Part shown: positions 5,135-49,708 of the stretch, piece by piece
Layout: every line of letters starts with the position of its first letter
Numbering within the stretch: position 1 is the stretch's first letter
Source: Candidatus Woesebacteria bacterium
GTDB lineage: Bacteria; Patescibacteriota; Microgenomatia; UBA8517
Assembly (NCBI GenBank): GCA_013426185.1
Contig: CP058602.1
Location: 271,123 to 335,122, forward strand
Direction: 5' to 3'
DNA length: 64,000 bases
Notes under the pieces: model-generated
The model's database searches: none
The model's input: the letters and a program-made list of their open reading frames with translations, nothing else
Told to the model about the DNA's origin: nothing
Made by a program: the position numbers and the translations under genes

Positions 5135-5135
5135 T

Positions 5136-30406: not shown

Positions 30407-31606
30407 TCACGCTACCCAATAGCCCCTGATGAAATAGGTAAGAAGAATAAATTGAAGAATAATCAGAAATGGTATTACCAACTTTACAAGACGTGGATAT
30501 TTTTCTGCCAAAAAAGGAAAAATCAAAAAGGCGGTTAAAGTATAACGAGGCATTGAGGTTAGAGTTCCTGTTAGGGTAGGTATAATTAAAACCAAAAAAG
30601 TAAAAATAAAATAAGAAAACCTCATTTTTCTGATAAAAAGAAAAAGCAAAGAAAAAAACAAAAGGGCAAGTAACAACTCAAATAAAGCAATGTTAAATTG
30701 ATAAGAAAAGATCGGAGTGTGAATAAAAATTTTGAAGTATCTATAAACTACTTGAGGCAAAAGAATAATTGGTTTGTCGCTTCTTTCTGCTGCAAAAAGA
30801 GGTTGTGCCTCAACAAAATAAAAAGGCTTACCAAAAAATTTCCAAAGATAAAACATATAAAAAACAAGACCTAAAGGAGAAATCAAAACTCCCAAAAAAT
30901 CTTTTAGAAATTGCTTTGACAGTTTTATTTTGCCTTTATAATTTAGATAAAACTCAATAAGAATAAGCAGAAAAAGACAAACTCCAACTACCTTTGTGAG
31001 AGAAGCAAAAGCGGCAAAAATACCTGCAAACAAAAATTTTTTCTTGAAAGAAAAATAAACAGAAAGAGAAGCTAAAAACAAAAACAAAGATTCGGTATAA
31101 ATAGCTCCAAAATAAAAACCAGTCGGCCAGGACAAAAGCAAGATAAGAGAAAGAAGAGCAGTTTTTGAATTAAAAATATTTTTGACTAGAAGATAAAAGG
31201 CATAAAAAGCCAACAAAGCAAAAACGTTTGAGACCAAAAGGGCAACGGCAAAAAAAGAGGGATCAACATAAACACTGGTATCAAGAGCCATATCTTTGGG
31301 CAAGAAATTCAAAATTCTAACGAGGAAAGGATAGAGAGGAAAAAATGCCTGAGAAGGTATAAAATCATAGCCGTTTTGAGCTATCCTTAAATAATGCACT
31401 CCATCAAAACCTCCCCATCCCCAAAGCCAAGGTGGAAGTTTGGTTATCTCCAAAACCCTTTCAACATAAGGAAACCAATGGCCATAATTGGGTACTAAAA
31501 AAACAGAAAGATAAGAAACAACAAAAAGTAAAATTCTCCATAATAAAAAGACAAAGAAAACAAGAAGAAAATCATTTCGCAACAATTTAGAAAAGAATTT
31601 TTTCAT
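30407..31606 (-). CDS. GT-C mannosyltransferase-like membrane protein (PIG-V / GT76-like, bacterial DUF-type)
   Basis: 'PWLWGWGGFDGVHYLRIAQNGYDF...AFFPLYP' resembles the PIG-V family W-DG-HY..IA..GY motif. Multi-TM. Confidence 0.45.
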   Translation of the reverse strand: MKKFFSKLLRNDFLLVFFVFLLWRILLFVVSYLSVFLVPNYGHWFPYVERVLEITKLPPWLWGWGGFDGVHYLRIAQNGYDFIPSQAFFPLYPFLVRILNFLPKDMALDTSVYVDPSFFAVALLVSNVFALLAFYAFYLLVKNIFNSKTALLSLILLLSWPTGFYFGAIYTESLFLFLASLSVYFSFKKKFLFAGIFAAFASLTKVVGVCLFLLILIEFYLNYKGKIKLSKQFLKDFLGVLISPLGLVFYMFYLWKFFGKPFYFVEAQPLFAAERSDKPIILLPQVVYRYFKIFIHTPIFSYQFNIALFELLLALLFFSLLFLFIRKMRFSYFIFTFLVLIIPTLTGTLTSMPRYTLTAFLIFPFLAEKYPRLVKLVIPFLIILQFILLTYFIRGYWVA

Positions 31607-32720
31607 AAACCTTCAAAGTTTCTCTTGCTGTTTTTAACCAAGAAAAATCTTCGACTCTTTTTAAACCCTTTTCAACAAGCCTTTTCCTTAAATCTTTTTG
31701 AGAAATTATTTCATTAAGCTTCTCTTTGAGATCAGAAACACTATAAGGATCAAAAAACAAAGCAGCATCAGAAGCTATTTCTCTATGCGCACCTATATCG
31801 CTTGCCAAAACAGGCGTTCCACAGGACATTGCTTCAAGCAAAGGAAGACCAAAGCCTTCATAAAAAGAGGGTTGAACATAAAGTGTCGCCAAATTGTAGA
31901 TAGCAACAAGGTCATTATCAGGCACAAAACCCAAACGAACAACTTTTTTACTCTTAGATATAATTTTAGAGAGATTTTTAAGATGACTAATTTCTGGGTG
32001 AGATTTGCCGAACAAAAATCTTACCCAATCCATTGGTCCTGCCAAATTTTTCTCTTGATGCAAATTGTCAATTTCGAGAGCTTGCTTGCCTACTATTACC
32101 AATGTTAAATCAAGGCTATCACATGCCTCAACTAAAGTGGATATGTTTTTATTGTAATTAACATCACCAACATAAAGTACAAACTTATCAGGCAAACTGT
32201 AGCGCTTCGCAACTTCCAACTGCCAACTTCCAGCTGACAGCCGTTTGAAAATATCGCGGGGTGCAAGATAAATAACATCAATTTTTCCTTGCGGGTAAGA
32301 AAGAAACTTAACTATATCTTTTTTGGAGGTTTCAGAGATGGTAACTATTCTATCAACATCAGAAAGCCTTGATTTTTGAAACTTAAAATTAAGCCTTCCC
32401 CTGACACCTGGCGGATAATGACTTGGATAGATAAGAGGAATCAAGTCGTGAATAGTAAGAACAACTTTATTGGCAGGCTTTGAGAGAGGAAGAGTTTTAA
32501 AAAAGGGATGAAAGTATTGATAATGAACAAGATCAAAATTTGATAAATCAAAGGATGAAAAATCAACTGCTTTAACCTTTATTTTGTTTTTGCCAAAAAC
32601 AAAATCAGACTTGGGTAATTTCTCAAAAGCAGATATTAACTCACGAGTGTTTACTCCAATACCCCGAACCTTATGTCCAGATATTAAAGGAGATGTGTCA
32701 ACAGCAACTTTTTTAATCAT
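31587..32720 (-). CDS. GT4 glycosyltransferase
   Basis: 'EGFGLPLLEAMSCGTPVLASD' motif. Confidence 0.7.
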   Translation of the reverse strand: MIKKVAVDTSPLISGHKVRGIGVNTRELISAFEKLPKSDFVFGKNKIKVKAVDFSSFDLSNFDLVHYQYFHPFFKTLPLSKPANKVVLTIHDLIPLIYPSHYPPGVRGRLNFKFQKSRLSDVDRIVTISETSKKDIVKFLSYPQGKIDVIYLAPRDIFKRLSAGSWQLEVAKRYSLPDKFVLYVGDVNYNKNISTLVEACDSLDLTLVIVGKQALEIDNLHQEKNLAGPMDWVRFLFGKSHPEISHLKNLSKIISKSKKVVRLGFVPDNDLVAIYNLATLYVQPSFYEGFGLPLLEAMSCGTPVLASDIGAHREIASDAALFFDPYSVSDLKEKLNEIISQKDLRKRLVEKGLKRVEDFSWLKTARETLKVYEKILF

Positions 32721-33469
32721 ACCTTTTCCCTTCTTGATTCCTCATAATAATTCTTGGGATAAATCGAGATTTCTTCTTTTAAAGTACCGTTTTTTATCTT
32801 TGCAATAATCGTTTTTGCTAGATCAATAGGATCAAGATAAGCTTTGCCCTTTTTGTTCTTCTTTATCTTCTCCTCAAGAGTCAAGGGACCAAAAGCAGTT
32901 AGAACACTCCCCAAAGTCAAAAGAATAAAATTAACATTTGTATTTTTATATTCCTTGGCAAGAGAAAGCATTAAGCCGCGAAGCCCAAATTTACTGGCGC
33001 AGTAAGCGCTTCTTTTTGAGACTGCTATTTTCCCCATCCCGGAACCCATACTAAAAACTAAGGACTTCTGAGATTTCTTAAGAAGAGGCAAAAATTCCTT
33101 AATCACCAAAAAAACTGAATCAAGGTTAATAGATAAAGACTTCCTCCACTCATCAAAACTCAAATCCTCAAGCTTCTTATAAATACCAATTCCGGCGGCA
33201 TTAACTAAGATGTCAATATTTTTAAAACTAGAAGACACTTTTCTTACCAGCCTTCTCACTTCTTTTTCAGAAGAAATATCTGTTTTAAATATAAACATCT
33301 TCCCTTTAAAGCCCAAGCTTTTTATTTCTTTTTGAAGAGCTTTTAAAATCAACACTCTTCTCCCAACCAAAACCAAGTTAGTGCCTTCAAGAGCAAAAGC
33401 AAAAGACAACGCCCGTCCAATGCCACCCGTTGCTCCTATTATCACCACATTTTTATCTTTAAGCTGCAT
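32717..33469 (-). CDS. Short-chain dehydrogenase/reductase (SDR)
   Basis: 'VVIIGATGGIGRALSFAFALEG' Rossmann TGxxxGxG, 'NAAG', and a YxxxK ('YCASKFG'). Confidence 0.75.
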   Translation of the reverse strand: MQLKDKNVVIIGATGGIGRALSFAFALEGTNLVLVGRRVLILKALQKEIKSLGFKGKMFIFKTDISSEKEVRRLVRKVSSSFKNIDILVNAAGIGIYKKLEDLSFDEWRKSLSINLDSVFLVIKEFLPLLKKSQKSLVFSMGSGMGKIAVSKRSAYCASKFGLRGLMLSLAKEYKNTNVNFILLTLGSVLTAFGPLTLEEKIKKNKKGKAYLDPIDLAKTIIAKIKNGTLKEEISIYPKNYYEESRREKV

Positions 33470-33507
33470 ATTTAATCAAGTTTAACAAAACAAATAGGAT
33501 AAAAATA

Positions 33508-35145
33508 CTATCTTGTTGAGACAATATAAAAAGCCACCTTGCCATTTGAAAGATAAATCTTCTCAAGCAACTTATCGCCTAAAACTTTCTCGTCAGGGAA
33601 GCTCCACGGGCTACCTACTAAAAGAGCATTCTTATTTAATGAATCCCTATACCAATTAATATAACCAAAAGCATATTTATCAAATGAAAAATAGGGCTCA
33701 TCTTGGTATATATCTCTTATTTTTTCTATAGTCTGATACTTTTCGGGGTCATATTTTGAATAAAACAAGAGATACATATGGGGATTATTTACCATATAAG
33801 GCCCATCAACACCCCTTCTGATATCAAAGATAACCTTATCATACTTATCTTGATATTTAAGGACGGCATAAACAACTTCTCTTAAACCTTCGTCAAAAGA
33901 TTCGCTTTTTTGATAAGGGAAATGAACTCTAAAAACAAGAAAAGCAAAAACCAAATTTAAAATAACTAAAGACGAAAAAACAAATATAAAAGAAAATCTA
34001 AGCAACCTATTTTTGAAAGAGAAAATCCATTTTATAAAGCTAAAGGCACCAAGAGTAGTCAAAAAGAAGATTATAGGAGTAAGATGTAAGAGACGGCCAG
34101 CATGTTGCTCATTGTTGGTAATAGAATCAGGAATTATCCCGGTAAATAACCAAATCAAAAGAATATCTTTATTTCTATTTTTCCATTTTACAAACTCAAA
34201 AATACCAAAGCCTAAAAACAAAGCCTCAAATGGACACAATAAACCCAAACCCATATTTGATGGTAAGACCATCTGCAAAGCATTTGAAAAAATGAAAAAC
34301 GGCTGGAGATAATTAAGGTATCTTTTAATCCAAAAGAAAAAAAGATAAATATAATCAACAAGACCGTTTAGATAACCAAAAATAACATAACGAACATAAT
34401 TTATATCATTTGCAATAAATACCATCTTAAAACGTGTACTTGCACCTTGAAATAAAGAAACATAAACAAGAGGCAAAGACAAAAACAAAAAGGTAAGAAT
34501 AAACAAACTAGTTTGTTTTTTACTTTTCAAGAGGTCCTTAATTTTAAAGACAGATATTGCAAAAACAAAGATAGGAATAAAAAGCCTCTGAGCAAAACCT
34601 GTATACATTGTTAAAACCATAAAAAGAGCTGAAAGAAATGAAAATCTTAGTTTTCTGTCATCAAGCATCTTCATAAAAAACCAAATACCAAGCATAGAGA
34701 AAAAACTTGCTATTAACGGTTCATAAGCAAAGCGAGAATAAAAAATATTCCAAGGAGAAATTGATAAAAATAGACTCCCCAAAAGAGCAAAATTATCTTT
34801 TCCAGTCAAATATTTAAGAAAAAAGAAAAAGAAAAAAACGAAAAGGGTGCCAAAAAGAGCATTCTGAAAACGTATAGCAAAATCAGAAACTCCAAATATT
34901 TTAAAAGACAAAACCATAAGGTAGGCCGGCAGAGGGTTTTTGTAATCGCCGATTGACTCGATAACCAGCGGTAAAAACCTCCCCGATTCATCTCTACCCG
35001 TTTCCAAAATTGAGTAAGCAGCATAGCCAAAAGATATCTCATCACCGGTCAGGCTAGTAGGATTTTTATCTACTTTATAGAATCTCAAAAATCCCCCAAA
35101 CAAAGTGATAATAATTAAAATCAAAAGAGTATTTTTCTTTATCAT
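33508..35145 (-). CDS. GT-C glycosyltransferase, ArnT/PMT-like (GT39/GT83-like, PMT_2-type)
   Basis: N-terminal TM helix then 'TGDEISFGYAAYSILETGRDESGRFLPL' DE-loop typical of ArnT/PMT. 545 aa, polytopic, with a C-terminal soluble domain. Confidence 0.65.
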   Translation of the reverse strand: MIKKNTLLILIIITLFGGFLRFYKVDKNPTSLTGDEISFGYAAYSILETGRDESGRFLPLVIESIGDYKNPLPAYLMVLSFKIFGVSDFAIRFQNALFGTLFVFFFFFFLKYLTGKDNFALLGSLFLSISPWNIFYSRFAYEPLIASFFSMLGIWFFMKMLDDRKLRFSFLSALFMVLTMYTGFAQRLFIPIFVFAISVFKIKDLLKSKKQTSLFILTFLFLSLPLVYVSLFQGASTRFKMVFIANDINYVRYVIFGYLNGLVDYIYLFFFWIKRYLNYLQPFFIFSNALQMVLPSNMGLGLLCPFEALFLGFGIFEFVKWKNRNKDILLIWLFTGIIPDSITNNEQHAGRLLHLTPIIFFLTTLGAFSFIKWIFSFKNRLLRFSFIFVFSSLVILNLVFAFLVFRVHFPYQKSESFDEGLREVVYAVLKYQDKYDKVIFDIRRGVDGPYMVNNPHMYLLFYSKYDPEKYQTIEKIRDIYQDEPYFSFDKYAFGYINWYRDSLNKNALLVGSPWSFPDEKVLGDKLLEKIYLSNGKVAFYIVSTR

Positions 35146-36320
35146 CTTATTTTTACTTCTTGGATTTTGCCATAATATCTAATAAATCTTTCCTTTTCTT
35201 TGGTTCTAATATCATAAAGCGTAAAAATAAACTGGAAAATTAATATAAATAAAGAAAGAATGATTAAAAATCGAAAACGCAAGCCTTTAGAATCAGACAG
35301 AGAAGAAAAGCCGTAACTAATAAGATAAATAACGACGGGAAAAAACAAAATTAGTCTATCTATGTTTATAAGATTAAGAGACATTAATGATGGCAAAAGC
35401 AATACCAGACCTAAAATTAGATACTTATTTCTAGAGATAAAAGATTTATAAAGACCATAAACAAAAGGAATCAAAAAACCTAAAAATATAGGGGGGCTGA
35501 AAGAAAAACCAAACATCTTTTCCTGAGATGTAAAAAATGTAGCGGGAGTTAAACTCTGCAATAATTTCAAAACAATAAATTCAAAACCCAAAATATATTT
35601 ATTCTCAACAATCTTTGAAAGAAAACCAAAGCCTTCTCTAACTGACTCGCCGCGATAGGTATTAATCATATTGATAAAACCGGGATCACCAAAGGCGCTC
35701 AATTCATTCTTAAAATATGAAAAGACAGCTTCTTTATTAACCAAGTAAGTGACAACAATTAAAGAAAAAACCAATATCAAGGAAAATATTAGAAATTTCT
35801 CTACCGTGCTTCTTAATTTTTTATCTTCCACTAAAAGGTAAAATAAAAACCAGAACAAAGGCAAAATAAAAAGGAAAAATAACGAGGTTGATATCCCAAG
35901 AAATAAGGAAAAAGTAATGACAAAAATAGATAATCCCTTATTCTCTTTTAGCAAGATGATACCCAAAACAAAAAGAAGTACTATAGACAAAAAGAAAATG
36001 TATGGAGAAACAAATGCAGTATGATAAAAAGACCAAGGACTAAAAGAATAAATCAAAAGAGGTAAAAGTGGGTTCTTGTCTGCAAAAAAATAATTACCTA
36101 AAACAAAAATCAAAAATAAATTAAAAAATTCTGATAAGTAAATGAATGTTTTAGTAATATAAAATTCTTTACCTAGAAAAGTAGAAATAAAAAACTTGTC
36201 TGGCAAAATAGAAACCCCAGACAAATGTTTTGATAAAAAATAAACCAAAAGAAAATGGAGAAAAACAATCAAAAAAAATCTAGGAAGGTATTTATTTACT
36301 CTTAGGAAAGACATGATCAA
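35142..36320 (-). CDS. Polytopic membrane protein
   Basis: 392 aa, multi-TM, translationally coupled on both sides. Confidence 0.45.
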   Translation of the reverse strand: MIMSFLRVNKYLPRFFLIVFLHFLLVYFLSKHLSGVSILPDKFFISTFLGKEFYITKTFIYLSEFFNLFLIFVLGNYFFADKNPLLPLLIYSFSPWSFYHTAFVSPYIFFLSIVLLFVLGIILLKENKGLSIFVITFSLFLGISTSLFFLFILPLFWFLFYLLVEDKKLRSTVEKFLIFSLILVFSLIVVTYLVNKEAVFSYFKNELSAFGDPGFINMINTYRGESVREGFGFLSKIVENKYILGFEFIVLKLLQSLTPATFFTSQEKMFGFSFSPPIFLGFLIPFVYGLYKSFISRNKYLILGLVLLLPSLMSLNLINIDRLILFFPVVIYLISYGFSSLSDSKGLRFRFLIILSLFILIFQFIFTLYDIRTKEKERFIRYYGKIQEVKIR

Positions 36321-37177
36321 GAATTCTTAAGATACCTGAAATAAGCCCTTGGGAACCTTAAAGCTGAAAAGAAGCTGAAGACTATCCCCTGCCAGCCATC
36401 AAGTATACCCTTATGTCTTATTTGAGTTAAAAAGAACCAATGCAAGGGTTTAAAAACAAAGAAATTTAGAAATTGAACAGGGTTTTTACCAACTCCATCT
36501 TTCTTCAAATTTTTTGCAATCAGGTCTATATACCTTGAATTCCTTTCAAGGTATCTTTTGAAATTAGGCGAATCATAATGAAAAAGCGGTTTACTAAGCC
36601 ATCCAACCCTACCTTGAACTACTATTTGCTCATGAACATCCTTGCAAGGAAAATAAGCCTTTCCCTTTTTGACCAATCTAATGACACCATCTGGATAAGT
36701 ACCACCATACTTTAGAAACTTACCTAAAAAATAGTTTCTTCTTGGGATAAAAAAACCAGCATACTCCCCATTTCCCCCTATTTTTCCATCTCTTTCTTCA
36801 AGCAAAGCCTGATGTCTTAAAAACAAATCTCTTTCTTTTAAAGATTTTTGATACAAATCAATTTCTTCCTCACTCATATTAATTATTTTTTTAATTTCGC
36901 AAGCAAGATCTTTTGAGACAACTTCATCAGCATCAAGCTGCAAAATCCAACTATACCGCGCAAGATCTAACGCCTTTTGCTTATTGATATGGAATATTGG
37001 AGGATTATCAGTAACTAAAACTTTAGCTTTAAATCTTTTTGCTATTTGGACAGTTTTATCCTTTGAAGAGCCATCAACAACAACTATTTCACTGGCAATA
37101 TCAATAACCGAATCAAGACATCTGCCAATATTTTCTTCCTCATTATATGTCGCTAAAACTACCGAAAGTTTATTCAT
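36317..37177 (-). CDS. GT2 glycosyltransferase (paralog of 61346..62179 and 63146..end)
   Basis: 'LSVVLATYNEEENIGRCLDSV...VVVDGSSKDKTVQIAKRFKAKV' and 'LDADE'. Confidence 0.7.
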   Translation of the reverse strand: MNKLSVVLATYNEEENIGRCLDSVIDIASEIVVVDGSSKDKTVQIAKRFKAKVLVTDNPPIFHINKQKALDLARYSWILQLDADEVVSKDLACEIKKIINMSEEEIDLYQKSLKERDLFLRHQALLEERDGKIGGNGEYAGFFIPRRNYFLGKFLKYGGTYPDGVIRLVKKGKAYFPCKDVHEQIVVQGRVGWLSKPLFHYDSPNFKRYLERNSRYIDLIAKNLKKDGVGKNPVQFLNFFVFKPLHWFFLTQIRHKGILDGWQGIVFSFFSALRFPRAYFRYLKNS

Positions 37178-37178
37178 A

Positions 37179-38777
37179 CTAATAACTTGAAACTATATAA
37201 AAAGCGTCACTGCCATTTGGATATTTTACCAGCTTTAAGACTGAAAAATCCTCCCTTCTTCTAAGACCAGTATACTTATAAGGCTCAATTACGTAAATAA
37301 CTCCATCAAGAGGTGTACTTTCAATCCAATCCCAACCGCCAAACTGATACCTGTCAAAAGAAAATACTGTATTGAAACTACTAGCAGTTGTTCTATCGTA
37401 TTTTACTGTTCTGAGAAATTCCGGCAAAGGCACTTTTTCATACCAAAGGAAGAAAACATATGGCTGTTGACGAATATTATCTACATAAACCTGATTATAT
37501 TTAGGATTATTTTTCAAAAAATATACAATATCTTTCATACCATACTGCCATTCAATAGCCTTTTCTGAATAATTTTTAAAATAAGAATAAATCTGAGGAA
37601 ACAATTCCCAAAAAAATAAAACAAAAACAGAAATTAAAATCAAACCCTTAAAGTATTTAGAGGAAAAAAGATCAATTAACCTAAAAAAACCATAACCCGA
37701 AAGAAATTCAATTGGACCAAGCATAAAAATAGCCCTAGTTGCATTTGCTTCGCCCCCAGCAAAAACAGCAGGAAGAGGAGCTAGTACAACCCACAAGATA
37801 AAAATTAAAAGAATAGAAAATTTCCTGCTAGAAAATAACAAAATAAAACCCAATAAAGCTAAAGAAAATACAACTTTTGAAAAGAGACCTCCATAACCCA
37901 TACTCGCGCGAGGAGAGACACTACCTTCTTTAAAAAGATAGTTGTAAGAAAAATAGTCCTTATAACCCGAAAGTCTGTATTCCAACTGTCCCAAAAGCCC
38001 GCTACCAGTCTTCTGAAAAAGATAGGTCTTTGCCACAACTTCACTAGACAATTTATTCTGATTGATTCTTGCTATCCCTAAAAGGCGTGGCTCAAAGAAC
38101 AAGACACTAATAAAGACCAAAAAAACAAAAAAGCCAATGGCAAACCACCTGAATAATTTAAAAAGATCTCGAATAAAAACAAATGTTAAAAGTAAAACAA
38201 GAGGAGGAACAACTATCAAGGCCGAGTGATAAGAAAGAAGAGAAACGCCAAAAGAAAAGCAAGAAAAGGGTAAGAGAACTTCTCTACCCTTTTTGCTCAA
38301 GGAGGCTTTAAACAAGACTAGACCCAAAACGAAAAAGAAAAGAGCAAAATGGGCTTCCCAAAGACCACGCGAGTAATGAATATCATAAGAAGAAAAAGCA
38401 ATTGCAAAAGCTGAAAAAAGACCTGCCAAGTCGCTGCCAAAATAAAGCTTACCCAATAAGAAAAATAAGGGAATTAAAAGTATCCCAAGCAAAGCTGAAG
38501 AAAAACGTGCAGAAAAATCACTAACCCCAAGAAAATTAAAAACCATAGAAGTGATATAGATATGGACAGGCCTTTTATCATCCCGAAACGAAGCAAAAAC
38601 CAAGGGCAAGGTTTTCCCCCATTCATCTTTTGCCCAATTTTTAATAGTATAAGCATTATAAGAAGCAGCCACTTCATCCCAATTCAAAGAAGGAGGAATT
38701 TGATCAAGCTTATAAAGCCTTAAAAAAGATCCTATCAAAAAAATAAAAATAAAGATAAAAGAATAAATTCTTTTCAT
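37179..38777 (-). CDS. GT-C glycosyltransferase, ArnT/PMT-like paralog
   Basis: 'NWDEVAASYNAYTIKNWAKDEWGKTLPL' N-terminal loop motif. 532 aa. Confidence 0.65.
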   Translation of the reverse strand: MKRIYSFIFIFIFLIGSFLRLYKLDQIPPSLNWDEVAASYNAYTIKNWAKDEWGKTLPLVFASFRDDKRPVHIYITSMVFNFLGVSDFSARFSSALLGILLIPLFFLLGKLYFGSDLAGLFSAFAIAFSSYDIHYSRGLWEAHFALFFFVLGLVLFKASLSKKGREVLLPFSCFSFGVSLLSYHSALIVVPPLVLLLTFVFIRDLFKLFRWFAIGFFVFLVFISVLFFEPRLLGIARINQNKLSSEVVAKTYLFQKTGSGLLGQLEYRLSGYKDYFSYNYLFKEGSVSPRASMGYGGLFSKVVFSLALLGFILLFSSRKFSILLIFILWVVLAPLPAVFAGGEANATRAIFMLGPIEFLSGYGFFRLIDLFSSKYFKGLILISVFVLFFWELFPQIYSYFKNYSEKAIEWQYGMKDIVYFLKNNPKYNQVYVDNIRQQPYVFFLWYEKVPLPEFLRTVKYDRTTASSFNTVFSFDRYQFGGWDWIESTPLDGVIYVIEPYKYTGLRRREDFSVLKLVKYPNGSDAFYIVSSY

Positions 38778-38780
38778 AAA

Positions 38781-41980: not shown

Positions 41981-43637
41981 AATTTCTCTTCTCTCTAATA
42001 TTCTTCCAGATTAAAAAGGAAAATACAAACAAACTAATCAAAGTTGTAAATAAAGATACGTTAATTATTAATGTTCTTTTAAAAACAACTTCTATCTCGC
42101 TTGAAGACCTAGAAACAAAGACCTTCAAAAATGGTTCGCTTTTGATATCTTGCTTCACATAAACACCATCTACTAAGACACTAACAAAAGGATAATTAAA
42201 TTTTGGTAATAATATGCTTTTCTCTTCGTCAAATAAAATTTTATACTTACTAGAATTTATACTTTCTGAGACTAAGCTAATCTGACTTTCGTTAATTATT
42301 TTTTCCTTAAGTTTGGTGTCAATAGAAAATAAACTAGCTCCCTTGGGAAAATACTCGTTATAAGTGCTTGTTGTTGACTCGCTTTCAATAAACGGCCTAA
42401 ATTCATTCTCAGCAAGAAACATATTAGGCCGAATATGGTTTCGGTTTGTATAAAAGGCGACAAAGAGAATTAAAAAAGGAAAAATATAATAAAAAATCTT
42501 GCTTTTTACCTCTTCTGTCAATAAAACAAACAAAAGGCTGGTTAAAAATACATTGGGGTAAATAAAACGAAAAGGAAAGTCAAGACCAGTCTTTGAGATA
42601 AACTTTTCCCAAAACAAAGACGAAGAATAATTAGTAAAAAATATGTTAATTAAGAAAGCAAGAATCAAAAATAAAACCAGGCTATCAAACTTAAACGACC
42701 TGAATAATCCCAAGAGGACAACTGACAGAGAAAACAAAAAAATAAGCCACTGGGCTATTCCAATCTGAAAAGAAAAAGGATTTTCAGAAGCAGATTTAAC
42801 AATTATTCCAAATCCCCATTTGGAATAAATAAGCTGGCTTAAATTAACAAAACCCATTTCAAATATTCTTGGCAAGCCGAGGATATAATTTTTGTAATAA
42901 AAAGCAGGAAACAAGTAGAAAGATGAAATTCCTAGAGAAAGAAATACTGAAAATAATATCGTTTTTAGAAATTTAATCTTAAACTTTGATTTAAAAAGAA
43001 AATATAAAGACAAAAAGAAAAAGGATGGTAAAAAAACAATCAAAGTGGGAAAATGAGAAAGGATAACGCCTGAAAGGCCGGATGTCATCAACAAACCCCC
43101 ATCTAACAGCCTACCTTTTTGAATCCTTAAAAGTCCCAAAGCTATCAATGGAATAAAAATAAAAGTAAAGGAAATACCCACTGCAGCCGAAACAAAAATA
43201 ATTAAAAATCTATAAGGAGCAATAAGGTAAAGAAAACTAGAAACAAGAGATAAATATCTCCTACGAGAAAGCTCAAAAGCTAAAAGGTACATAGTGACAC
43301 CTGATAAGAAAAAGCTTAAGAAAAACAAAATTTTAACAACAGAGACATCACTTAACCCAAAAAACATAAAAATTGAACCAAAGATCCAAGGCAAATGATA
43401 AGAAAACAAAAACAAAGGATAACCAAAACCTGAAGCCGCATCTGAAAGATAATAAGGAGGAAATTGGCCCTCTTTCAAAGCTTGAAAATAATAATTAAGC
43501 CGAGCCAAATTGTGCCAAATATCATGAGCTGTATAAATGCCAGACTGAAAAATATAACGAAGTGTAAATAAAGAGAAAATAAGAATAAACAAAAAAGACA
43601 AAAAGTCTTTCTTCCTTAAAAAATTCAAAAAAAACAT
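41970..43637 (-). CDS. Large polytopic membrane protein of the second paralog family (YfhO-like / uncharacterised GT-C candidate)
   Basis: 'SGFGYPLFLFSYHLPWIFGS' and '...FPFRFIYPN' motifs, shared with 53574..55247, 55216..56883 and the C-terminal domain of 56864..59362. Confidence 0.5.
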   Translation of the reverse strand: MFFLNFLRKKDFLSFLFILIFSLFTLRYIFQSGIYTAHDIWHNLARLNYYFQALKEGQFPPYYLSDAASGFGYPLFLFSYHLPWIFGSIFMFFGLSDVSVVKILFFLSFFLSGVTMYLLAFELSRRRYLSLVSSFLYLIAPYRFLIIFVSAAVGISFTFIFIPLIALGLLRIQKGRLLDGGLLMTSGLSGVILSHFPTLIVFLPSFFFLSLYFLFKSKFKIKFLKTILFSVFLSLGISSFYLFPAFYYKNYILGLPRIFEMGFVNLSQLIYSKWGFGIIVKSASENPFSFQIGIAQWLIFLFSLSVVLLGLFRSFKFDSLVLFLILAFLINIFFTNYSSSLFWEKFISKTGLDFPFRFIYPNVFLTSLLFVLLTEEVKSKIFYYIFPFLILFVAFYTNRNHIRPNMFLAENEFRPFIESESTTSTYNEYFPKGASLFSIDTKLKEKIINESQISLVSESINSSKYKILFDEEKSILLPKFNYPFVSVLVDGVYVKQDIKSEPFLKVFVSRSSSEIEVVFKRTLIINVSLFTTLISLFVFSFLIWKNIREKRNYEK

Positions 43638-43640
43638 AGA

Positions 43641-45143
43641 CTATTGAGCCTTGTTCATTACCAAAAAACGCCAAAAAAATGGTATTCTTAATTCTGATAT
43701 TTTACTTGATTCAACAATCGGACAAGACTTGCTTTGGCAAGCAAGCTCAAAGGAATTGTAAATATACTTGACATTAAAAAATAAACCTAAAATCACGATA
43801 ACCAAAATCATAAGCTGAGTTGTTTTTTGAATAAACTTCTTTCTAAACAAAAGATTTAATATCGGCAAAAAGAAAAAGAAAACAATCCAAAACCTATATT
43901 GGTGTGGCAGAACGTTAGGATGAAAAGGGTTAACCAAAAGCATTCGGTTGCCAAGCAATAACCCAAAAGCTAAAAACATACTAAAGAAATCGGATTTCTT
44001 AAGAATAAGCAACAGACCCCAAGCAATTAGAATAGACAAGAAAGGATAAGAAGGGAAACGATACCAAGCCAATAAATCATTTTCCCCTCCTGAAACCATA
44101 ACCACCAACACCCAAAAGACAAAAGCCATTAAAACGACAAATTTATCGCCTTTTAATCCTTTGAAGAGAAAATAAGCAGAAGAAAGTAAACCAAAAACAA
44201 ACCAGCTATCACGAGTTATTTGTGTATCAAAAGACGGCGTGATAAAAAACCATGCAAGGCTGCCAAAACCAACAGGTCTTGATGACTGTATAGAGTTAAT
44301 TCTCTTAAAGACCTCCCAATCAAGATGATATCCCCACCAAAAATAAAAACCCACAAAAGGTAAAGTCAAAAACAACAAAAGAAAGGAATAAATAAAAGCT
44401 TTTCTATAGGAACTTTTCCTGCAAAGATCCATAAAGACAAAAAATATGGCAAATAAAATGATAAAAAAGCCTGTAGGTTTTGAAAGGCCAGCTACACCGG
44501 CAAGAATAGGCATTAGAATAAGGTACCAAAACGATTGTTTTTTTCTAAAAAGAAGAATTAGATAAACAAGAATAGAAAAACACAAAGTTATTAATGTTTC
44601 AGGCATAGCTGTTCTTGATGCAAAGACAAAGATTGGAACAGTACCATAAATTAGCATTGAAAGCATTCCAACCCAAAAACCAGATATATGAGAAGCTATT
44701 AGAAAAACAAAAATAGAAGTTAAAGCCGATATAAAAATCATAGGATAACGAATAAAAGTAGATGGGACAAAATCACGCTCTTCTACTCCAAATTTATTAG
44801 CAAAAAAACCAACCAGATAAGAGAAAAGAGGTGGTTCATCAAGCCAAGGTTTATAAAGAGTAACCGAAGCCTTAGGATCTCCACCTTTATAATTTATCTC
44901 TCCCCTATACACCTCTCTACTTTTCGGATAATCAAGGGTAGACCAAGAAATAGGAACCCCCGACTTGATTAAACTAACTCCACTTAAAGCGTAAAGTTGT
45001 TCGTCTAGATGCCCTACCCCTGGTGTTTTCTCATAATTATGAGCTCGCAAGATAAATGTAAAAATAAGAACTAGCAAGAAAACAAAGAACTTAAAAAGAA
45101 AAATTTTGAACCTAAAGCCAGACTTTAAAAGATGCTTCATCAA
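43641..45143 (-). CDS. GT-C-type membrane glycosyltransferase candidate (PMT_2-like, divergent)
   Basis: 'VGHLDEQLYALSGVSLIKSGVPISW' DE-loop after the first TM. 500 aa, polytopic. Confidence 0.5.
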   Translation of the reverse strand: MMKHLLKSGFRFKIFLFKFFVFLLVLIFTFILRAHNYEKTPGVGHLDEQLYALSGVSLIKSGVPISWSTLDYPKSREVYRGEINYKGGDPKASVTLYKPWLDEPPLFSYLVGFFANKFGVEERDFVPSTFIRYPMIFISALTSIFVFLIASHISGFWVGMLSMLIYGTVPIFVFASRTAMPETLITLCFSILVYLILLFRKKQSFWYLILMPILAGVAGLSKPTGFFIILFAIFFVFMDLCRKSSYRKAFIYSFLLLFLTLPFVGFYFWWGYHLDWEVFKRINSIQSSRPVGFGSLAWFFITPSFDTQITRDSWFVFGLLSSAYFLFKGLKGDKFVVLMAFVFWVLVVMVSGGENDLLAWYRFPSYPFLSILIAWGLLLILKKSDFFSMFLAFGLLLGNRMLLVNPFHPNVLPHQYRFWIVFFFFLPILNLLFRKKFIQKTTQLMILVIVILGLFFNVKYIYNSFELACQSKSCPIVESSKISELRIPFFWRFLVMNKAQ

Positions 45144-45172
45144 ATGAATTATAACATTATAGAAGAATAATC

Positions 45173-46816
45173 TTACCTTTCAGAGCAGGGCTTGTTTGTA
45201 TTGTAACCAAAAAGATAAGCTTCGCCTCTTAGATCTTCAATCTCAAAAACTTTAGTAAGGAAATGAGATTTCATTTGATCCTGAGACACAGAAAATCTAT
45301 CTCCAACTAAAAGCAAGTCTTTACCACAAATCTCACCCCACTCAATAGGCTTAATTATAATATTGTCTATCACAAAAATCTCATAAGGATTAACTTCACC
45401 ACTATAGTAAGGCGTTATCAGTTGCGACTTCAGATTATTCTGCATCAAATATGGGTCAGCGCCCAGAATATAAGCCGACACCGTTCCTATACCCCATGCT
45501 CTGTCTGTCCTATCAATATAGATTTTGTTTTCCCTATACTTATCTATCTGCTTCAAAAGCTTAAGATAAGGGAAACTGCCCTCTGAATTTACTATCCGAT
45601 ATTTAAAAAGCACAAACCTCGAAGTGTACAAAATAAATAAAGAGTAGATAAGCAGTAGGGAAAAAACCAATAAACGAAATAGCCCATTCTTAATAAATTT
45701 AAAAACCATATAGAAACCATAAGAAATAATGTTAGTAATTAACCAAAGAAACACCAACACCCTAATAGGAAAAAAGATATCTCCTGTAAGACCAGCAGGA
45801 ACTGGAGATATTAAAATCAAAAAACTAAAAACTTTTACAATATTCCTATCTATATTATTGATAAAACCTCTCAACCCCAAGACGGCTAAAAACAAAAACA
45901 AAGGATAAAAAACACTCAAATCAGGACCTACTCTACCGAGCTCATTACCTGAATTAAAGAATAAATTTTTGGGAGAAAAATAATCAAGATAATGGCCGGC
46001 AAAATTTTTAAAGGCAAACAATACCTTTCCACTAAAGTCTGAGTTAACAAAAGCGGGATCACTAAAATAACCTACCTGTGCCAATCTTCTTGTCAAAGCG
46101 CCTGTTTTTGCAATATACAAATGAGGCAAGATAAATAAAAGAAAAACAAAGAACCCATAAAGCAAAGCTTTCTTGTTAGCTTTAAAGTAATTTCTAGACA
46201 AAATGATAAAAAAGAAAATGTACAAAAAGGCTGTAACTCTTTCCGTGTAATAAGTATGTGTTGAAAGACCCAAAAACAAACAACCAAGGACAAAAAATAA
46301 AGTTTGTCTTCTACTTTTCTCAAGAGATAAAAGGGTAAAAAACACACCCAACCCAAAAACTAAAACTACCAGATTTCCCTCAGCAGTAAGTCTCCCAAAA
46401 TGAACAGACCATGGAGAAATGGCTACAAACAAAGCAGCGAAAACGCCCTGCAAAATTTTTTCTTCTTTTTTTCCCAAACCGAAAAACTTCCAAAAATAAA
46501 AAGAAAGAATCACTAAAAGAACTCCCGAAAAAGCCGAGACAAACCTAGCAGCGAAAATGGTGTTACCAAATAAAAATACTGGAATAGTAGTTAAATAGGT
46601 ATAAACAGGAGGCTGATATGAACCGTTAGCCCGAAAAAGAATAGGAAAGGTTTGGCCGTACATATCGCGACCTGTTTTAATAAGCGAGTAAGCATTGTAA
46701 GCTATTGAGGATTCATCAGCATGAAAGTGAAAAGAAATATCCCCTAGTTTCCAAAATCGCAGGACGAAAGCCAAAACAAAAATAGCAAAAAGAGATAATT
46801 TTTGCGCTTTACTCAT
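45173..46816 (-). CDS. GT-C glycosyltransferase, ArnT/PMT-like paralog
   Basis: 'HADESSIAYNAYSLIKTGRDMYGQTFPILFRANGSYQPPVYTY'. Confidence 0.65.
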   Translation of the reverse strand: MSKAQKLSLFAIFVLAFVLRFWKLGDISFHFHADESSIAYNAYSLIKTGRDMYGQTFPILFRANGSYQPPVYTYLTTIPVFLFGNTIFAARFVSAFSGVLLVILSFYFWKFFGLGKKEEKILQGVFAALFVAISPWSVHFGRLTAEGNLVVLVFGLGVFFTLLSLEKSRRQTLFFVLGCLFLGLSTHTYYTERVTAFLYIFFFIILSRNYFKANKKALLYGFFVFLLFILPHLYIAKTGALTRRLAQVGYFSDPAFVNSDFSGKVLFAFKNFAGHYLDYFSPKNLFFNSGNELGRVGPDLSVFYPLFLFLAVLGLRGFINNIDRNIVKVFSFLILISPVPAGLTGDIFFPIRVLVFLWLITNIISYGFYMVFKFIKNGLFRLLVFSLLLIYSLFILYTSRFVLFKYRIVNSEGSFPYLKLLKQIDKYRENKIYIDRTDRAWGIGTVSAYILGADPYLMQNNLKSQLITPYYSGEVNPYEIFVIDNIIIKPIEWGEICGKDLLLVGDRFSVSQDQMKSHFLTKVFEIEDLRGEAYLFGYNTNKPCSER

Positions 46817-47310
46817 AATTTCAAAGACTTTCTAATAAATCTAAGAAAGACACAAAATCCTAAAAATATAGAAAAAAAGAATAAGGGCAAGTATAAAAGC
46901 AAAGATCTTTCAGATGGTAACAAGATACTGAAAAACATAGCCAAAACAAGGTATATAAAAAACTCAAATAGAAAGTTTTTAACAAGATAAAAAAGACCAG
47001 CAAATAAAAATGGCAAAACAAAATAAAACAGAAGGTATTTTTCTAGGTAAGGCCTGAAATCCAAAGGATAAGCTGCTTTATTGAGAAATTTGTTAAAAAA
47101 ATAGGCTCTTTTACCCATAAACAGACGCGAAGCCTTGAGATTAAACAAAAAACCAAGTTCGCTATTCAATAAATGGCTATCATTTTCCTGAATTATCTGT
47201 TTATCAAGATCGGGGATAAAAAGGATATTTCTGTCAAAATATTTAAGAGAAAGGTAAATTCCCAAGAAAAATAAAAAAATAATAAGTAAATATGAGATTT
47301 TTTTATTCAT
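46813..47310 (-). CDS. Small membrane protein (165 aa), possible accessory or flippase-like component
   Basis: 2-4 TM helices. Lies between the Dpm1-like GT2 and a GT-C. Not recognisably GtrA. Confidence 0.35.
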   Translation of the reverse strand: MNKKISYLLIIFLFFLGIYLSLKYFDRNILFIPDLDKQIIQENDSHLLNSELGFLFNLKASRLFMGKRAYFFNKFLNKAAYPLDFRPYLEKYLLFYFVLPFLFAGLFYLVKNFLFEFFIYLVLAMFFSILLPSERSLLLYLPLFFFSIFLGFCVFLRFIRKSLKL

Positions 47311-48050
47311 CTAAATCTTCTATCCCTCTTAATGCCAAGACGATGGAGGTAATAAAAAAAGATAGTCAAAAATCCCTCTAAAACAAATTTAGAGCCTTTC
47401 CAAAATCTAATAGAAGAAGCTTTTTCGTGGTATCGAGTTGGAATGGGAATCTCGCCAATTCTAAAACCATAACTTAAAGCTGAGATTGTCATTTCCTGAT
47501 CAAAGACAAAATCATTAGAAAAACGTTGAAAAGGAACTTTCCTTAAAAGCTTGGCGCTATACGCCCTAAAACCTGAAAAATGCTCAGTAAAATTAACTCC
47601 CAAAAGAATATTCTGAATAAAACAAACTATTCTATTGACATAATATTTAAGAGGAGGCATTCCCCCTTCAAGAGCTCCCTTTTTTGTGGCAATACGGCTA
47701 CCAAACATAAAATCATACTTTCCATCAAGAATTGGCTGAACAAGGTAAGGAATCATTGTCGCATCATATTGATAATCAGGATGAAGCATTACAACAACAT
47801 CTGGCTTTAATTTCAGAGCTTCCCAATAACAAGTCTTTTGGTTTCCACCATAACCTAAATTATTAGGGTGAGCAAAAACTTTAATACCAAGTTTTTTTGC
47901 TACTTTTGTCGTATCATCTGAACTATTATCATCAACCAGAATAACATGCTTCCTATACTCAAGAGGAGTCTCGCGATAGGTATCTTCTACAGTTTTTGCC
48001 GCATTGTAAGCGGGCATAACAATAACTACTTTTCCAGTTTTTTTACTCAT
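47307..48050 (-). CDS. Polyprenyl-phosphate sugar synthase-type GT2 (dolichol-phosphate mannosyltransferase / GtrB / ArnC-like)
   Basis: 'VVIVMPAYNAAKTVEDTY...VILVDDNSSDDT...' followed by '...HPDYQYD' and 'FSGFRAY', as in Dpm1-like enzymes. Confidence 0.75.
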   Translation of the reverse strand: MSKKTGKVVIVMPAYNAAKTVEDTYRETPLEYRKHVILVDDNSSDDTTKVAKKLGIKVFAHPNNLGYGGNQKTCYWEALKLKPDVVVMLHPDYQYDATMIPYLVQPILDGKYDFMFGSRIATKKGALEGGMPPLKYYVNRIVCFIQNILLGVNFTEHFSGFRAYSAKLLRKVPFQRFSNDFVFDQEMTISALSYGFRIGEIPIPTRYHEKASSIRFWKGSKFVLEGFLTIFFYYLHRLGIKRDRRFR

Positions 48051-49708
48051 TTCTTATATGATTCTTTAATCAAAATAGGTCTTGTGCCTATTCTAAAATT
48101 AATAACCTTATAATCAGATATGATATCCTTAAGTATAACAAAATCACCAATAAACAAACAACGACCGCTACAACTTTCAATAAAGAAATCTAGATCTTTA
48201 TTTGGCACATCAACAATAAAAATATTATCAAAATTTCTAACCCAAAATCCTTTAATCTTGGGGTTTTCCTGATTCTGCCTCTGAACCTCCTTTGGATCTA
48301 CTTTTCCATAAACCTCATAAGCATACTCTATATTTTCTATACTTTTTGACAAAAAGACATAATCATATTTATTCTTAACTTTTGAAACAAACTCAAAAAC
48401 ATCTCTCGCTTGATATGACCATAAATCAGCATTTTTATAAGGCAAAAGAAAATTAGCACGGGCAAATCCCAAAGCCAATTGGAAAAATACCAAAAAGCAA
48501 ACTGCAAATAAACCAAGCCTCGCCAAAACATTTTTCCTCTTCTCAAACAGTTGATAAAAACCCAAAGCACTAATTAACAAAAGCGGTGGAAGCATAAAAC
48601 TATTGCGCAAAGCATGTTCTTCCAAAAGCAAAAAAGAACCAAGAGGTGCAATAAAAAGCCAGGAAAAAATAAACAAAAACGGCTTAAAATTCTTGGTCTT
48701 AAACACCATAAAAGCAAAAGCTAAAACACCCAAAAAAATAAGCAAAAAATCAGCATAATACATTTGCCCAAATTCAAACAGATTGTGTTTGGGATTTTTG
48801 TCTCCAGAAATAAAAAGAAAATCCGGCGAGAAGTTGTTCAAATAAGCACCTATTAAAAGATTGAAATAATAAAAAGCCTTATTAGAAAGTAAAAATTCAA
48901 TTTTTTCTGGCAGTTTTACCAGACCTCTCTCCCAAGCAACTTCTGAAGTAATTTCATCTTTTACATCCTTTCTTGAAAAAACGTTAATAGAAAGAAATCT
49001 TTCTTCAGAAAATCCTTTAAAGGTTTCATTGAGAGAAAGAGCAATAGCGAAAAAACCAAGAAAAATTGAAATTAAGATAGGAAAAAAACTTTTCTTGTCT
49101 TTTAAAGAAACTTTTAAATCTTCAAAAACATAAAAAAACAAAAATGGCAAGAAAAGAAAAAGAACCAACTTATAAACTGGATAAGTGTGGATAGACAACC
49201 CCCAAGATAAAGAAAAAACCACATACAACCAAGGTCTACCTTTTGAATAAAGCAAAGAGGCCACACCCAAAAGAGCCAAAAAAAGAGCAAAATGCGCTTC
49301 AAATCCAACCCGCGACAAGGAGATATCCCAAAAAGAAACAGCAGTAAACAAAGAAGCTATAAGGCCTATTCTTTCGTTGAAAAGCTTTTTGCCAAGAAAA
49401 TAAATTAAAATTATTATCCCTAAACCCGATAAAAAAGATAAAAACCTTACTCCCCAAGCTGTAGGGCCAAAAATAGCCACGAAGGGAATACTAAAATAAA
49501 CATATCCAGCTGGTCTACCAGCACCCATTTTGAAGGTTAGAGGTAAAAAATTACCAAGCTGGTCTTTACCAGTTCTCAATAAAGAATAAGAATCATAAAC
49601 CATAGTCAACTCGTCGCCATAAAGTGGAAGATTGGCCAATTTATAAAACCTGAGGCAAAAACCAATAAAAAGGATCAAGACCAAGACAAGCAAACTTTTT
49701 TTATTCAT
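48047..49708 (-). CDS. GT-C glycosyltransferase, ArnT/PMT-like paralog
   Basis: 'YGDELTMVYDSYSLLRTGKDQLGNFLPLTFKMGAGRPAGYVY'. Confidence 0.65.
   Translation of the reverse strand: MNKKSLLVLVLILFIGFCLRFYKLANLPLYGDELTMVYDSYSLLRTGKDQLGNFLPLTFKMGAGRPAGYVYFSIPFVAIFGPTAWGVRFLSFLSGLGIIILIYFLGKKLFNERIGLIASLFTAVSFWDISLSRVGFEAHFALFLALLGVASLLYSKGRPWLYVVFSLSWGLSIHTYPVYKLVLFLFLPFLFFYVFEDLKVSLKDKKSFFPILISIFLGFFAIALSLNETFKGFSEERFLSINVFSRKDVKDEITSEVAWERGLVKLPEKIEFLLSNKAFYYFNLLIGAYLNNFSPDFLFISGDKNPKHNLFEFGQMYYADFLLIFLGVLAFAFMVFKTKNFKPFLFIFSWLFIAPLGSFLLLEEHALRNSFMLPPLLLISALGFYQLFEKRKNVLARLGLFAVCFLVFFQLALGFARANFLLPYKNADLWSYQARDVFEFVSKVKNKYDYVFLSKSIENIEYAYEVYGKVDPKEVQRQNQENPKIKGFWVRNFDNIFIVDVPNKDLDFFIESCSGRCLFIGDFVILKDIISDYKVINFRIGTRPILIKESYKK

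Follow-up and report, generated by a model that had tools for sequence, protein, structure and literature searches.

In mycobacteria, the GT-C glycosyltransferases (GTs) of the Emb/Aft/Pim machinery extend and branch polymers outside the membrane with decaprenyl-phosphate-linked sugars. The use of polyprenyl-phosphate-linked sugars on the outer face of the membrane is established for GT-C enzymes and belongs to the hallmark features of extracytoplasmic glycosylation (PMC11127046), and the logic of three-component systems is one of post-export decoration of envelope glycans (PMC11127046; PMC5836110). In archaea, Agl23 is a putative flippase for hexose-phosphate-dolichol; once purified and placed in proteoliposomes, it translocated a lipid-linked oligosaccharide (PMC11182771). 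The subject of the present analysis is a run of 15 genes, ten of them of the GT-C type, in a 64-kb stretch of the genome of a Candidatus Woesebacteria bacterium (contig CP058602.1). The whole stretch of 64,000 nucleotides (nt) that was analyzed is called the window, and its genes are named by their lower coordinate. The closest functional analogues of the run are Gtr/YfhO-type systems and, by number of enzymes, the mycobacterial Emb/Aft/Pim machinery. A literature search found no description of these Patescibacteria GT-C arrays, most subscription journals lying outside the search, so that absence is not proof. The tandem GT-C array is real and is conserved across the whole lineage.

GT-C paralogs and partner proteins of the gene run

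A scan of the window for open reading frames (ORFs) recovered all 15 ORFs of the run on the minus strand, between 49708 and 30407, co-directional and tightly packed, as had been claimed in a preliminary description of the locus. The coordinates given there, 32717-49708, mark a run that exists but take in only 13 of the 15 genes it named. Junctions within the run range from -20 to +38 nt, with 4-nt overlaps at nine of them. Promoter- and terminator-like sites within the run were no more numerous than in shuffled sequence; the assignment to a single operon is therefore inferred from gene packing.

Six of the genes encode full-length paralogs, here family A, with 24-37% identity and E-values of 1e-21 to 1e-75 in all-against-all BLASTP. 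In order of transcription these are 48047..49708 (553 amino acids, aa; PMT_2 40.7 bits), the first gene of the run; the strain-variable 45173..46816 (547 aa; PMT_2 42.7 bits); 40340..41980 (546 aa; PMT 36.9 and PMT_2 36.2 bits), the most conserved member and the one modelled; 38781..40343 (520 aa; E 2e-75 to 40340); 37179..38777 (532 aa; PMT_2 39 and PMT 23.1 bits); and 33508..35145 (545 aa; PMT_2 41.2 and PMT 36.8 bits; E 2e-70 to 40340). The Pfam cut-off for PMT_2, 26.1 bits, was exceeded by five of the six, with 38781 below it at 18.7-19.7 bits. The gathering score of PMT (PF02366), 22.7 bits, was exceeded by 40340, 33508 and 37179, while 38781, 45173 and 48047 scored below it or had no match. 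Judged by its BLASTP similarity, 38781 is an unambiguous family-A paralog despite its sub-threshold Pfam scores. Pfam scans at E<=0.01 reported no PMT_4TMC or MIR domain for any paralog, nor any STT3 match.

The paralogs share an invariant core, D32-E33-x4-Y38-x2-Y41-x7-D49-x6-P56 in the numbering of the 40340 protein, together with invariant R89, R135, E139, R233 and R357. A longer loop motif had been quoted as common to all six; its D-E core is conserved, but the quoted string is a consensus rather than an exact common string. The catalytic columns are kept in ~370 members from more than 80 loci and in all six ortholog groups, and D32-E33, invariant among the six paralogs, is present in at least 91% of the sequences within every group. 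The ratio of nonsynonymous to synonymous substitution (dN/dS) against same-species contigs was 0.23 for 48047 and 0.04-0.07 for 40340, within a range of 0.04-0.3 across genes with enough substitutions. With catalytic columns conserved and dN/dS low wherever it could be estimated, it was ruled out that the full-length paralogs are pseudoenzymes.

The 40340 protein was modelled with AlphaFold2 from 49 sequences, with a predicted local distance difference test (pLDDT) score of 92.4. The model has 11 transmembrane (TM) helices; the loop that follows TM1 is 65 residues long, and the C-terminal 129 residues form an alpha/beta domain. Searched against the PDB with Foldseek, its top matches were all GT-C enzymes: the best E-values (1e-8) belonged to STT3 and AglB and the best TM-score (0.58/0.59) to ArnT, followed by PglB, Pmt4, ALG9/12, DPY19 and Emb, with AftD and Pmt1/2 also among the matches. 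ArnT was also the only significant PDB match at the sequence level (E ~1e-5 over 160 residues, TM2-TM7). Lysine and arginine residues in the short loops of family A number eight on the predicted cytoplasmic side versus two outside, and the DE loop and C-terminal domain are therefore predicted to lie outside the membrane. Profile matches, an acidic loop after TM1 that is predicted to be outside and the structural similarity of the model thus support the assignment of all six paralogs to PMT_2/PMT-type enzymes of the GT-C_A fold with a predicted outward-facing DE loop, and bear out the six GT-C paralogs of the preliminary description.

Six was nevertheless too low a count for the run, since Pfam and profile-profile comparison with hhalign raise the number of GT-C-type genes to ten. 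The protein of 43641..45143 (minus strand; 500 aa) is a seventh DE-loop GT-C outside family A, with the highest PMT_2 score of the run (57 bits; the six proteins 48047, 45173, 43641, 40340, 37179 and 33508 span 36-57 bits); it reached 93.8% against family A in hhalign, its LDE aligned on the family WDE, and it has orthologs in 19 loci. The 392-aa membrane protein of 35142..36320 (minus strand) has no Pfam match but is family-A-like (hhalign 98.7%, E 1.4e-16). The alignment covers family-A residues 93-426 only, so the protein has neither DE loop nor C-terminal domain; the loop is likewise absent from 11 of 11 orthologs examined, and 35142 may serve as a subunit without catalytic activity or be flippase-like. 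The 555-aa membrane protein of 41970..43637 (minus strand; hhalign 96.1% against family A) belongs to a second family, family B, of PTPS_related/YfhO-like GT-Cs marked by an invariant Asp after TM1 and a GFGYPLF motif. It had no direct Pfam match to PF10131 or PF09586 itself, but is paralogous to 53574, 55216 and 56864 (BLASTP E 1e-22 to 1e-36), of which 55216 (49.2 bits) and 53574 (29.3 bits), both at E ~1e-36 to 41970, passed PTPS_related (PF10131). The last gene of the run, 30407..31606 (minus strand; 399 aa), encodes a PIG-V/PMT_2-like GT-C with Mannosyl_trans2 (35.4 bits) and PMT_2 (28.5 bits) both above cut-off.

Between 48047 and 45173, where the preliminary description had placed them, lie a GT2 gene and a gene for a small membrane protein. 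The GT2 (47307..48050, minus strand; 247 aa; Glycos_transf_2 68 bits) is a short Dpm1/DPMS-like form with a single C-terminal helix and a putative polyprenyl-phosphate sugar synthase. Its best NCBIfam matches were AglJ, PpgS and a Dol-P-hexose transferase, all below cut-off, as was ArnC (20.9 bits against a cut-off of 529), and its sole PDB sequence match was the dolichyl-phosphate mannose synthase (DPMS) of Pyrococcus furiosus (5MLZ, E 2.6e-5). The AlphaFold2 model (pLDDT 87) had GtrB, DPMS and ArnC as top Foldseek matches, interleaved with GpgS; because soluble GpgS/MpgS enzymes score equally well, fold alone leaves the type undecided. Residues 90-96 read HPDYQYD in 35 of 35 aligned homologs where DPMS has DADLQH, so that the first Asp of the DxD is a His in this group. 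Homologs are 75-98% identical across the lineage, compared with 58-63% for the GT-C neighbours, dN/dS is 0.085, and GT2s of this type (E<1e-100) occur in 17 loci. Taken together, the PDB, fold and NCBIfam matches support a protein closest to polyprenyl-phosphate glycosyltransferases and agree with its earlier description as Dpm1/GtrB/ArnC-like.

The small membrane protein (46813..47310, minus strand; 165 aa, ~4 TM helices) had no Pfam or NCBIfam match, and no match to GtrA, SMR or MATE profiles even at E<=1. Direct homolog searching recovered two clusters only, while an iterative search of related loci defined a fast-evolving family of 165-250 aa with the motif LDPNLYFFxSHPRER in at least 15 loci (members include L041:7685-8329, L034:7583-8269, L012:5121-5768 and L009:4507-5007). 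The family lies directly upstream of a 45173-type GT-C in 13 of 14 loci examined, and the Dpm1-like GT2 precedes it in only 4 of those 14. In hhalign, residues 82-165 aligned with family-A residues 284-406, the FTPDFLF loop plus TM8-TM10 (92.9%, E 3.8e-7), a score that the compositional bias of membrane segments could inflate. By sequence, 46813 looks like a stand-alone, GT-C-derived (TM8-TM10) accessory or partner of the 45173-type paralog rather than a GtrA-type flippase. A Gtr-like flippase was ruled out for lack of any GtrA/SMR/MATE signal, the GT-C derivation and its gene partner, which is a GT-C and not the GT2; the third-component role of Gtr/Arn style that had been proposed for this protein is abandoned on the same grounds.

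Conservation of the array and its setting in a glycan island

Homologs of the 40340 protein number more than 3,220; the named ones among them come from Patescibacteria and are annotated 'glycosyltransferase family 39 protein' or 'ArnT-like', and a profile of the six paralogs retrieved 6,152 representatives (50% clustering) at E<=1e-30. A scan of species-representative genomes yielded 80 loci. Organism names, where informative, were Woesebacteria, Daviesbacteria, Shapirobacteria, Microgenomates and 'Patescibacteria group'; the others carried a generic label. Many 'MAG TPA_asm' records with these loci (L005, L007-L009, L012 and others) are titled 'uncultured Gammaproteobacteria bacterium', an organism label that appears to be generic or mistaken. 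The closest locus was that of Woesebacteria Ch104a (73% identity), and three contigs from independent samples matched window positions 37307-58050 at 97% DNA identity with the same gene order.

The preliminary description had called the number of paralogs unusual. Among the 49 loci with full flanks (±10 kb), which come from Woesebacteria, Daviesbacteria and Shapirobacteria, however, 44 hold 4-7 family-A genes (range over the 49, 2-9), making 4-7 tandem copies the norm in Microgenomates; for this lineage the claim was rejected. Searched across 83 loci, orthologs were found in 68 loci for the GT2 36317, 57 for the GT4 31587, 50 for the PIG-V-like 30407, 43 for 37179 (~45% identity), 43 for 38781 (all with DE), 24 for 48047 (~44% identity) and 18 for 45173. 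The trio 40340-38781-37179, together with GT2 36317, the GT4 and the PIG-V-like gene, is syntenic in 43-68 of the 83 loci, whereas the module of GT2 47307, mini-protein 46813 and 45173/48047-type genes occurs in only about one quarter of loci. Each family-A paralog has its own orthologs, which are 44-60% identical across orders, compared with 24-37% between paralogs. The duplications are therefore ancient and predate the divergence of these groups, the copies are non-redundant, and recent tandem duplication was ruled out.

Variation between strains is concentrated in one paralog. The DNA of 45173 is 87% identical to the three same-species contigs, compared with 97-99% for its neighbours, and includes a ~400-nt patch of 66% identity at 45451-45850 (aa ~322-455, TM8-TM11), a pattern that suggests recombination or diversification of this paralog. 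In the nearest other genus (locus L001, 79% identity, KatS3mg088-like), the 45173 and 33508 orthologs, at 5082-6795 and 16856-18506, both appear as a pair of overlapping ORFs, through apparent frameshifts or possibly assembly error. The same array contains a Y1_Tnp (IS200/IS605-type) transposase gene (L001:18540-19232). A related Woesebacteria-type genome has, at the end of the syntenic cluster, a gene for a 217-aa GT2 and then one for a small DUF2304 membrane protein (L002:20890-21665); we take this pairing to match mycobacterial PpgS/Rv3632, and it would be a second candidate polyprenyl-phosphate-sugar synthase module, absent from this window.

Three genes of the run remain. The GT2 of 36317..37177 (minus strand; 286 aa; Glycos_transf_2 68.6 bits; PDB matches GmaR and SunS) is GmaR/SunS/WaaE-like and a conserved core partner of the trio 40340-38781-37179, with 56% identity across its 68 loci. 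A classical short-chain dehydrogenase (SDR; 32717..33469, minus strand; 250 aa; adh_short 152 bits) is syntenic in L001 and L002; a DprE2-like role was considered for it, but its NCBIfam matches were generic SDR/FabG-type ones only, all below cut-off. The cytoplasmic GT4 spans 31587..32720 (minus strand; 377 aa; Glycos_transf_1 120 bits).

Beyond the last gene of the run lie 542 nt that are gene-free. An AU-rich long hairpin followed by a U-run (30240..30322, minus strand; -49.5 kcal/mol, z -2.3) is a candidate terminator of the run. The hairpin itself, of ~68 nt at 30255-30322, is situated ~85-170 nt past the last stop codon, and an 87%-identical copy stands at 27540-27607, after the next gene pair (GDP-mannose dehydratase and a membrane protein). 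Both are likely intrinsic terminators of a form outside the coverage of a simple terminator scan. At the other end, a divergent plus-strand gene (49735..51714; 659 aa) begins 26 nt from 48047..49708. Its polytopic membrane protein has no Pfam match, aligned with family A over 421 columns in hhalign (91.9%), has orthologs in 23 loci and appears distantly GT-C-like.

Glycan synthesis takes up the entire 64-kb window, an island with a polysaccharide-type toolkit. It encodes at least 15 GT-C-type proteins, including PMT_2 proteins at 3773 and 20727 and weaker ones at 14172 and 1433, and elsewhere ~10 GT2, four GT4 and one GT8 enzymes, methyltransferases and a GDP-mannose dehydratase. A Wzx-like flippase gene at 8589-9869 is the only Wzx/MATE-like gene and lies 37 kb from 47307/46813. 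A second tandem set at 53574-59362 (minus strand) comprises three PTPS_related/YfhO-like GT-C genes, of which 56864-59362 (minus strand; 832 aa) fuses an N-terminal GT2 domain to the GT-C and would therefore combine a cytoplasmic GT-A and an extracytoplasmic GT-C in one polypeptide. G+C content is ~32% over the entire window, and no tRNAs or Rfam families were found in it.

Intergenic regions between gene blocks of the island (8484-8579, 9958-10260, 13618-13796, 25384-25504, 26482-26641 and 29916-30220) carry 7-nt tandem repeats (ATTACAA, ACAAATT, TAAATCC, AACTTTT and CTTTCTA, in up to 22 copies) as well as longer common modules that are 86-94% identical between sites; these could be promoter, regulatory or recombination elements. 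Heptamer-type repeats also lie inside the PMT_2-like ORF 14172-15911 (minus strand), at 14184-14272 and 14792-14880, where they are translated into low-complexity stretches such as QIPNSKSQTNSKQ, both in the middle of the protein and at its C-terminus; the ORF may contain repeat insertions or be over-extended. Between a GT2 gene and the Wzx-like flippase gene, 8049-8441 (minus strand) encodes a 130-aa four-helix '23S rRNA-intervening sequence protein' (127 bits) with a weak bAvd-like match; neither a reverse transcriptase nor a template/variable repeat pair was noticed near it.

Readings of the locus

The reading we favour, at a probability of roughly 45%, is that the locus forms the core of a cell-envelope glycan island whose product is extended and branched stepwise outside the membrane, namely a glycopolymer of the surface or the secondary cell wall, or else the glycan part of a surface-layer glycoconjugate. 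A glycopolymer acceptor is favoured because of the polysaccharide-type toolkit of the island. The Dpm1/DPMS-like GT2 47307, cytoplasmic and membrane-associated, would transfer a monosaccharide from a nucleotide sugar to polyprenyl phosphate, possibly with other GT2 and GT4 enzymes contributing to donor synthesis, and the lipid-linked sugar would reach the outer membrane face via a flippase. There the seven DE-loop GT-C_A enzymes (six of family A plus 43641) would use lipid-linked donors, as would the PTPS_related/YfhO-like 41970 and the PIG-V-like 30407, and each would attach sugars to a shared extracytoplasmic acceptor according to its own specificity for linkage or acceptor. Polyprenyl-phosphate-sugar-dependent extracytoplasmic glycosylation is most likely the mechanism. 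The analysis shows fold, motifs, paralogy and orthology, conservation, synteny and purifying selection; donor type, topology, sequential action and acceptor are inferred, and stepwise extracytoplasmic assembly is a reasonable proposal.

Several observations weigh against the glycopolymer. Its support is purely computational, drawn from genes and models. No recognisable flippase gene lies within the 15-gene run, and no initiating phosphoglycosyltransferase or ligase (LCP or WaaL-like) was found among the profiled ORFs of the window. The fold search with 47307 does not separate polyprenyl-phosphate transferases from soluble GpgS/MpgS, and its metal motif is HPDYQYD, not DxD; moreover, with a single Dpm1-like synthase to ten GT-Cs, the source of most donors is left unexplained. 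The top Foldseek E-values of 40340 belong to oligosaccharyltransferases (OSTs), and the PMT Pfam matches and the DE motif fit protein O-glycosylation equally well.

That last alternative, PMT-type O-glycosylation, would have the enzymes move sugars from polyprenyl phosphate to Ser/Thr residues of secreted or surface proteins (S-layer proteins, pilins or disordered regions of membrane proteins), with different paralogs, or heteromers as in Pmt1-Pmt2, serving different substrates. We hold this main rival to be somewhat unlikely. In its favour, three paralogs pass the gathering score of the GT39-specific PF02366, the DE motif follows TM1 directly in a model with 11 TM helices, Pmt4 and Pmt1/2 are among the fold matches, NCBI labels the homologs 'glycosyltransferase family 39 protein', and the 4-nt gene overlaps would suit stoichiometric co-production. 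In addition, O-glycosylation of Ser/Thr-rich regions by GtrB and GT-C enzymes is reported for monoderm bacteria (PMC11092751). Against this, PMT_4TMC and MIR domains were missing from the Pfam scans, the C-terminal domain is an alpha/beta domain of STT3/ArnT type, the island context is polysaccharide-like, and the window contains no gene for a candidate acceptor rich in Ser/Thr.

The fragmentary members of the array bear on two further readings. In the first, which we consider doubtful, Microgenomates build a lineage-specific surface glycoconjugate largely outside the membrane with a conserved 'assembly line' of specialised GT-C paralogs, in which the repurposed GT-C fragments 35142 and 46813 act as non-catalytic subunits or, as is reported for Agl23, as lipid-sugar flippases/scramblases. 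If true, this would be a GT-C-only solution to both donor flipping and transfer, and the glycan could help to determine how these episymbiont-like bacteria attach to hosts or are recognised by phages. In the second, some members are not transferases at all and flip, scramble or chaperone lipid-linked sugars as Agl23 may, the candidates being the DE-less 35142, the mini-protein 46813 or a full-length paralog adjacent to the GT2. The Agl23 model TIGR03663 is the sole NCBIfam match of 33508 (55 bits), 45173 and 37179, with E-values of 7e-15 to 7e-8 over the three, translocation of a lipid-linked oligosaccharide by Agl23 in proteoliposomes (PMC11182771) is a precedent, the run contains no canonical flippase, and 35142 is without the catalytic loop in all orthologs. 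However, the TIGR03663 scores do not reach half the cut-off, the DE pair is retained in all six full-length groups along with the Arg/Glu residues that an active GT-C should have, and flipping is not readable from sequence, so this reading appears improbable.

Alternatively, the paralogs could be OST-like enzymes that transfer preassembled glycans en bloc from polyprenyl diphosphate, supplied via the Wzx-like flippase of 8589-9869, onto proteins or polymers. The best Foldseek E-values (STT3, AglB and PglB), a weak archaeo_STT3 match of 48047 (18.6 bits against a 450-bit cut-off) and a 'DWQYG' directly after the last TM helix of 40340 orthologs, which recalls WWDYG, point in this direction. The DWQYG is confined to the 40340 orthologs and is not conserved among paralogs, however, an STT3 Pfam match is absent, sequence-level similarity favours ArnT/PMT_2 and the highest TM-scores are those of ArnT, all of which makes an en bloc transferase very unlikely. 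Scarcely credible is a variable repertoire of interchangeable surface decorators, comparable to Gtr seroconversion and serving antigenic or phage-receptor variation without an ordered pathway, since the strain-level divergence of 45173 (87% versus 97-99%, with its 66% patch), the two apparently frameshifted orthologs near the transposase gene in the nearest genus, the copy number of 2-9 per 21 kb and the presence of the 47307-46813-45173/48047 module in only about one quarter of loci are set against a core trio whose synteny and orthology, like those of its partners, extend across orders, against the strong purifying selection that acts on 40340, and against paralog identities of 24-37% that are too low for recent variants.

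Patescibacteria are thought to live attached to other cells. Complete genomes of relatives measure 0.77-0.98 Mb, and the glycan-assembly island, which spans 64 kb or more and encodes no fewer than 15 GT-C-type enzymes, would take up ~8% of a ~0.8-Mb genome, assuming a size like that of the relatives. Since the array is conserved in Woesebacteria, Daviesbacteria and Shapirobacteria and the family is large, the product is probably a central envelope component of a major lineage. Knowledge of the structure and acceptor of this product would shed light on wall building, host attachment and phage recognition in these cells, and the family would add well-modelled, compact GT-C enzymes for mechanistic work.

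Comparison with known systems

Among single enzymes, ArnT (GT83; Cupriavidus metallidurans, 5EZM) is the only significant PDB sequence match and the best TM-score match of 40340. The ArnT/ArnC system shares with the locus the GT-C_A fold, the C-terminal extracytoplasmic alpha/beta domain and a polyprenyl-phosphate-monosaccharide donor made by a GT2, which for the locus is a presumed donor, and ArnC is among the fold matches of 47307. Identity to the window protein is nevertheless only ~10%, and ArnT has 13 TM helices whereas the window model has 11. To our knowledge lipid A, the acceptor of ArnT, is not expected in Patescibacteria, and none of the partners arnA/B/D/E/F, including an ArnE/F-type SMR protein, was present among the profiled ORFs of the window. 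The GT39 enzymes Pmt1/2, Pmt4 and actinobacterial Pmt resemble family A in the DE after TM1, in 11 TM helices with a cytoplasmic N-terminus and external C-terminus (predicted here), in the PF02366 match that three paralogs pass and in a lipid-phosphate-sugar donor from a Dpm1-type synthase (presumed here). They differ in that the window paralogs lack MIR and PMT_4TMC, have another C-terminal domain and stand six to seven in tandem.

The OSTs STT3, AglB and PglB gave the best Foldseek E-values and place their C-terminal alpha/beta domain similarly, but the window paralogs are only 13-16% identical to them and have neither the STT3 Pfam match nor a conserved WWDYG. The Agl22/Agl23 pair of the archaeon Haloarcula hispanica likewise combines a Dpm1-like hexose-phosphate-dolichol synthase with a TIGR03663 GT-C-like protein (PMC11182771). 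Agl23, however, is credited with flipping, while the full catalytic signature is retained in the window paralogs, and the three that match this model score less than half its cut-off.

At the level of gene organization, three-component systems (GtrA/GtrB/Gtr*, CsbB/GtcA/YfhO and ORF12-15 of C. youngae) share with the locus a polyprenyl-phosphate-sugar synthase-like GT2 that adjoins GT-C genes, and family B resembles the YfhO/PTPS_related type of the CsbB/GtcA/YfhO system. Unlike in these systems, the GT2 of the window has no adjacent GtrA/SMR/MATE flippase and its small neighbour appears GT-C-derived; there are many GT-Cs per synthase, and the array is chromosomal and class-wide rather than an accessory serotype module.

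In number of enzymes, the locus is closest to mycobacterial arabinogalactan and lipoarabinomannan synthesis (EmbA/B/C, AftA-D, PimE and Mpt), which likewise involves multiple GT-C paralogs, some of them in tandem (embCAB). The mycobacterial GT-Cs build their polymers stepwise outside the membrane from decaprenylphosphoryl arabinose (DPA) and polyprenyl-phosphate mannose (PPM), and PpgS acts with Rv3779. PpgS is the second-best NCBIfam match of 47307, and Emb and AftD are among the fold matches of 40340. The likeness is at the fold level only (TM-scores 0.2-0.4), the window has no CBM-type C-terminal domains or DprE1/UbiA-type genes, and organism and envelope are unrelated. The array thus emerges as lineage-wide and uncharacterised yet mechanistically conventional, made up of proteins that fall within a known superfamily and are publicly labelled 'GT39 family'.

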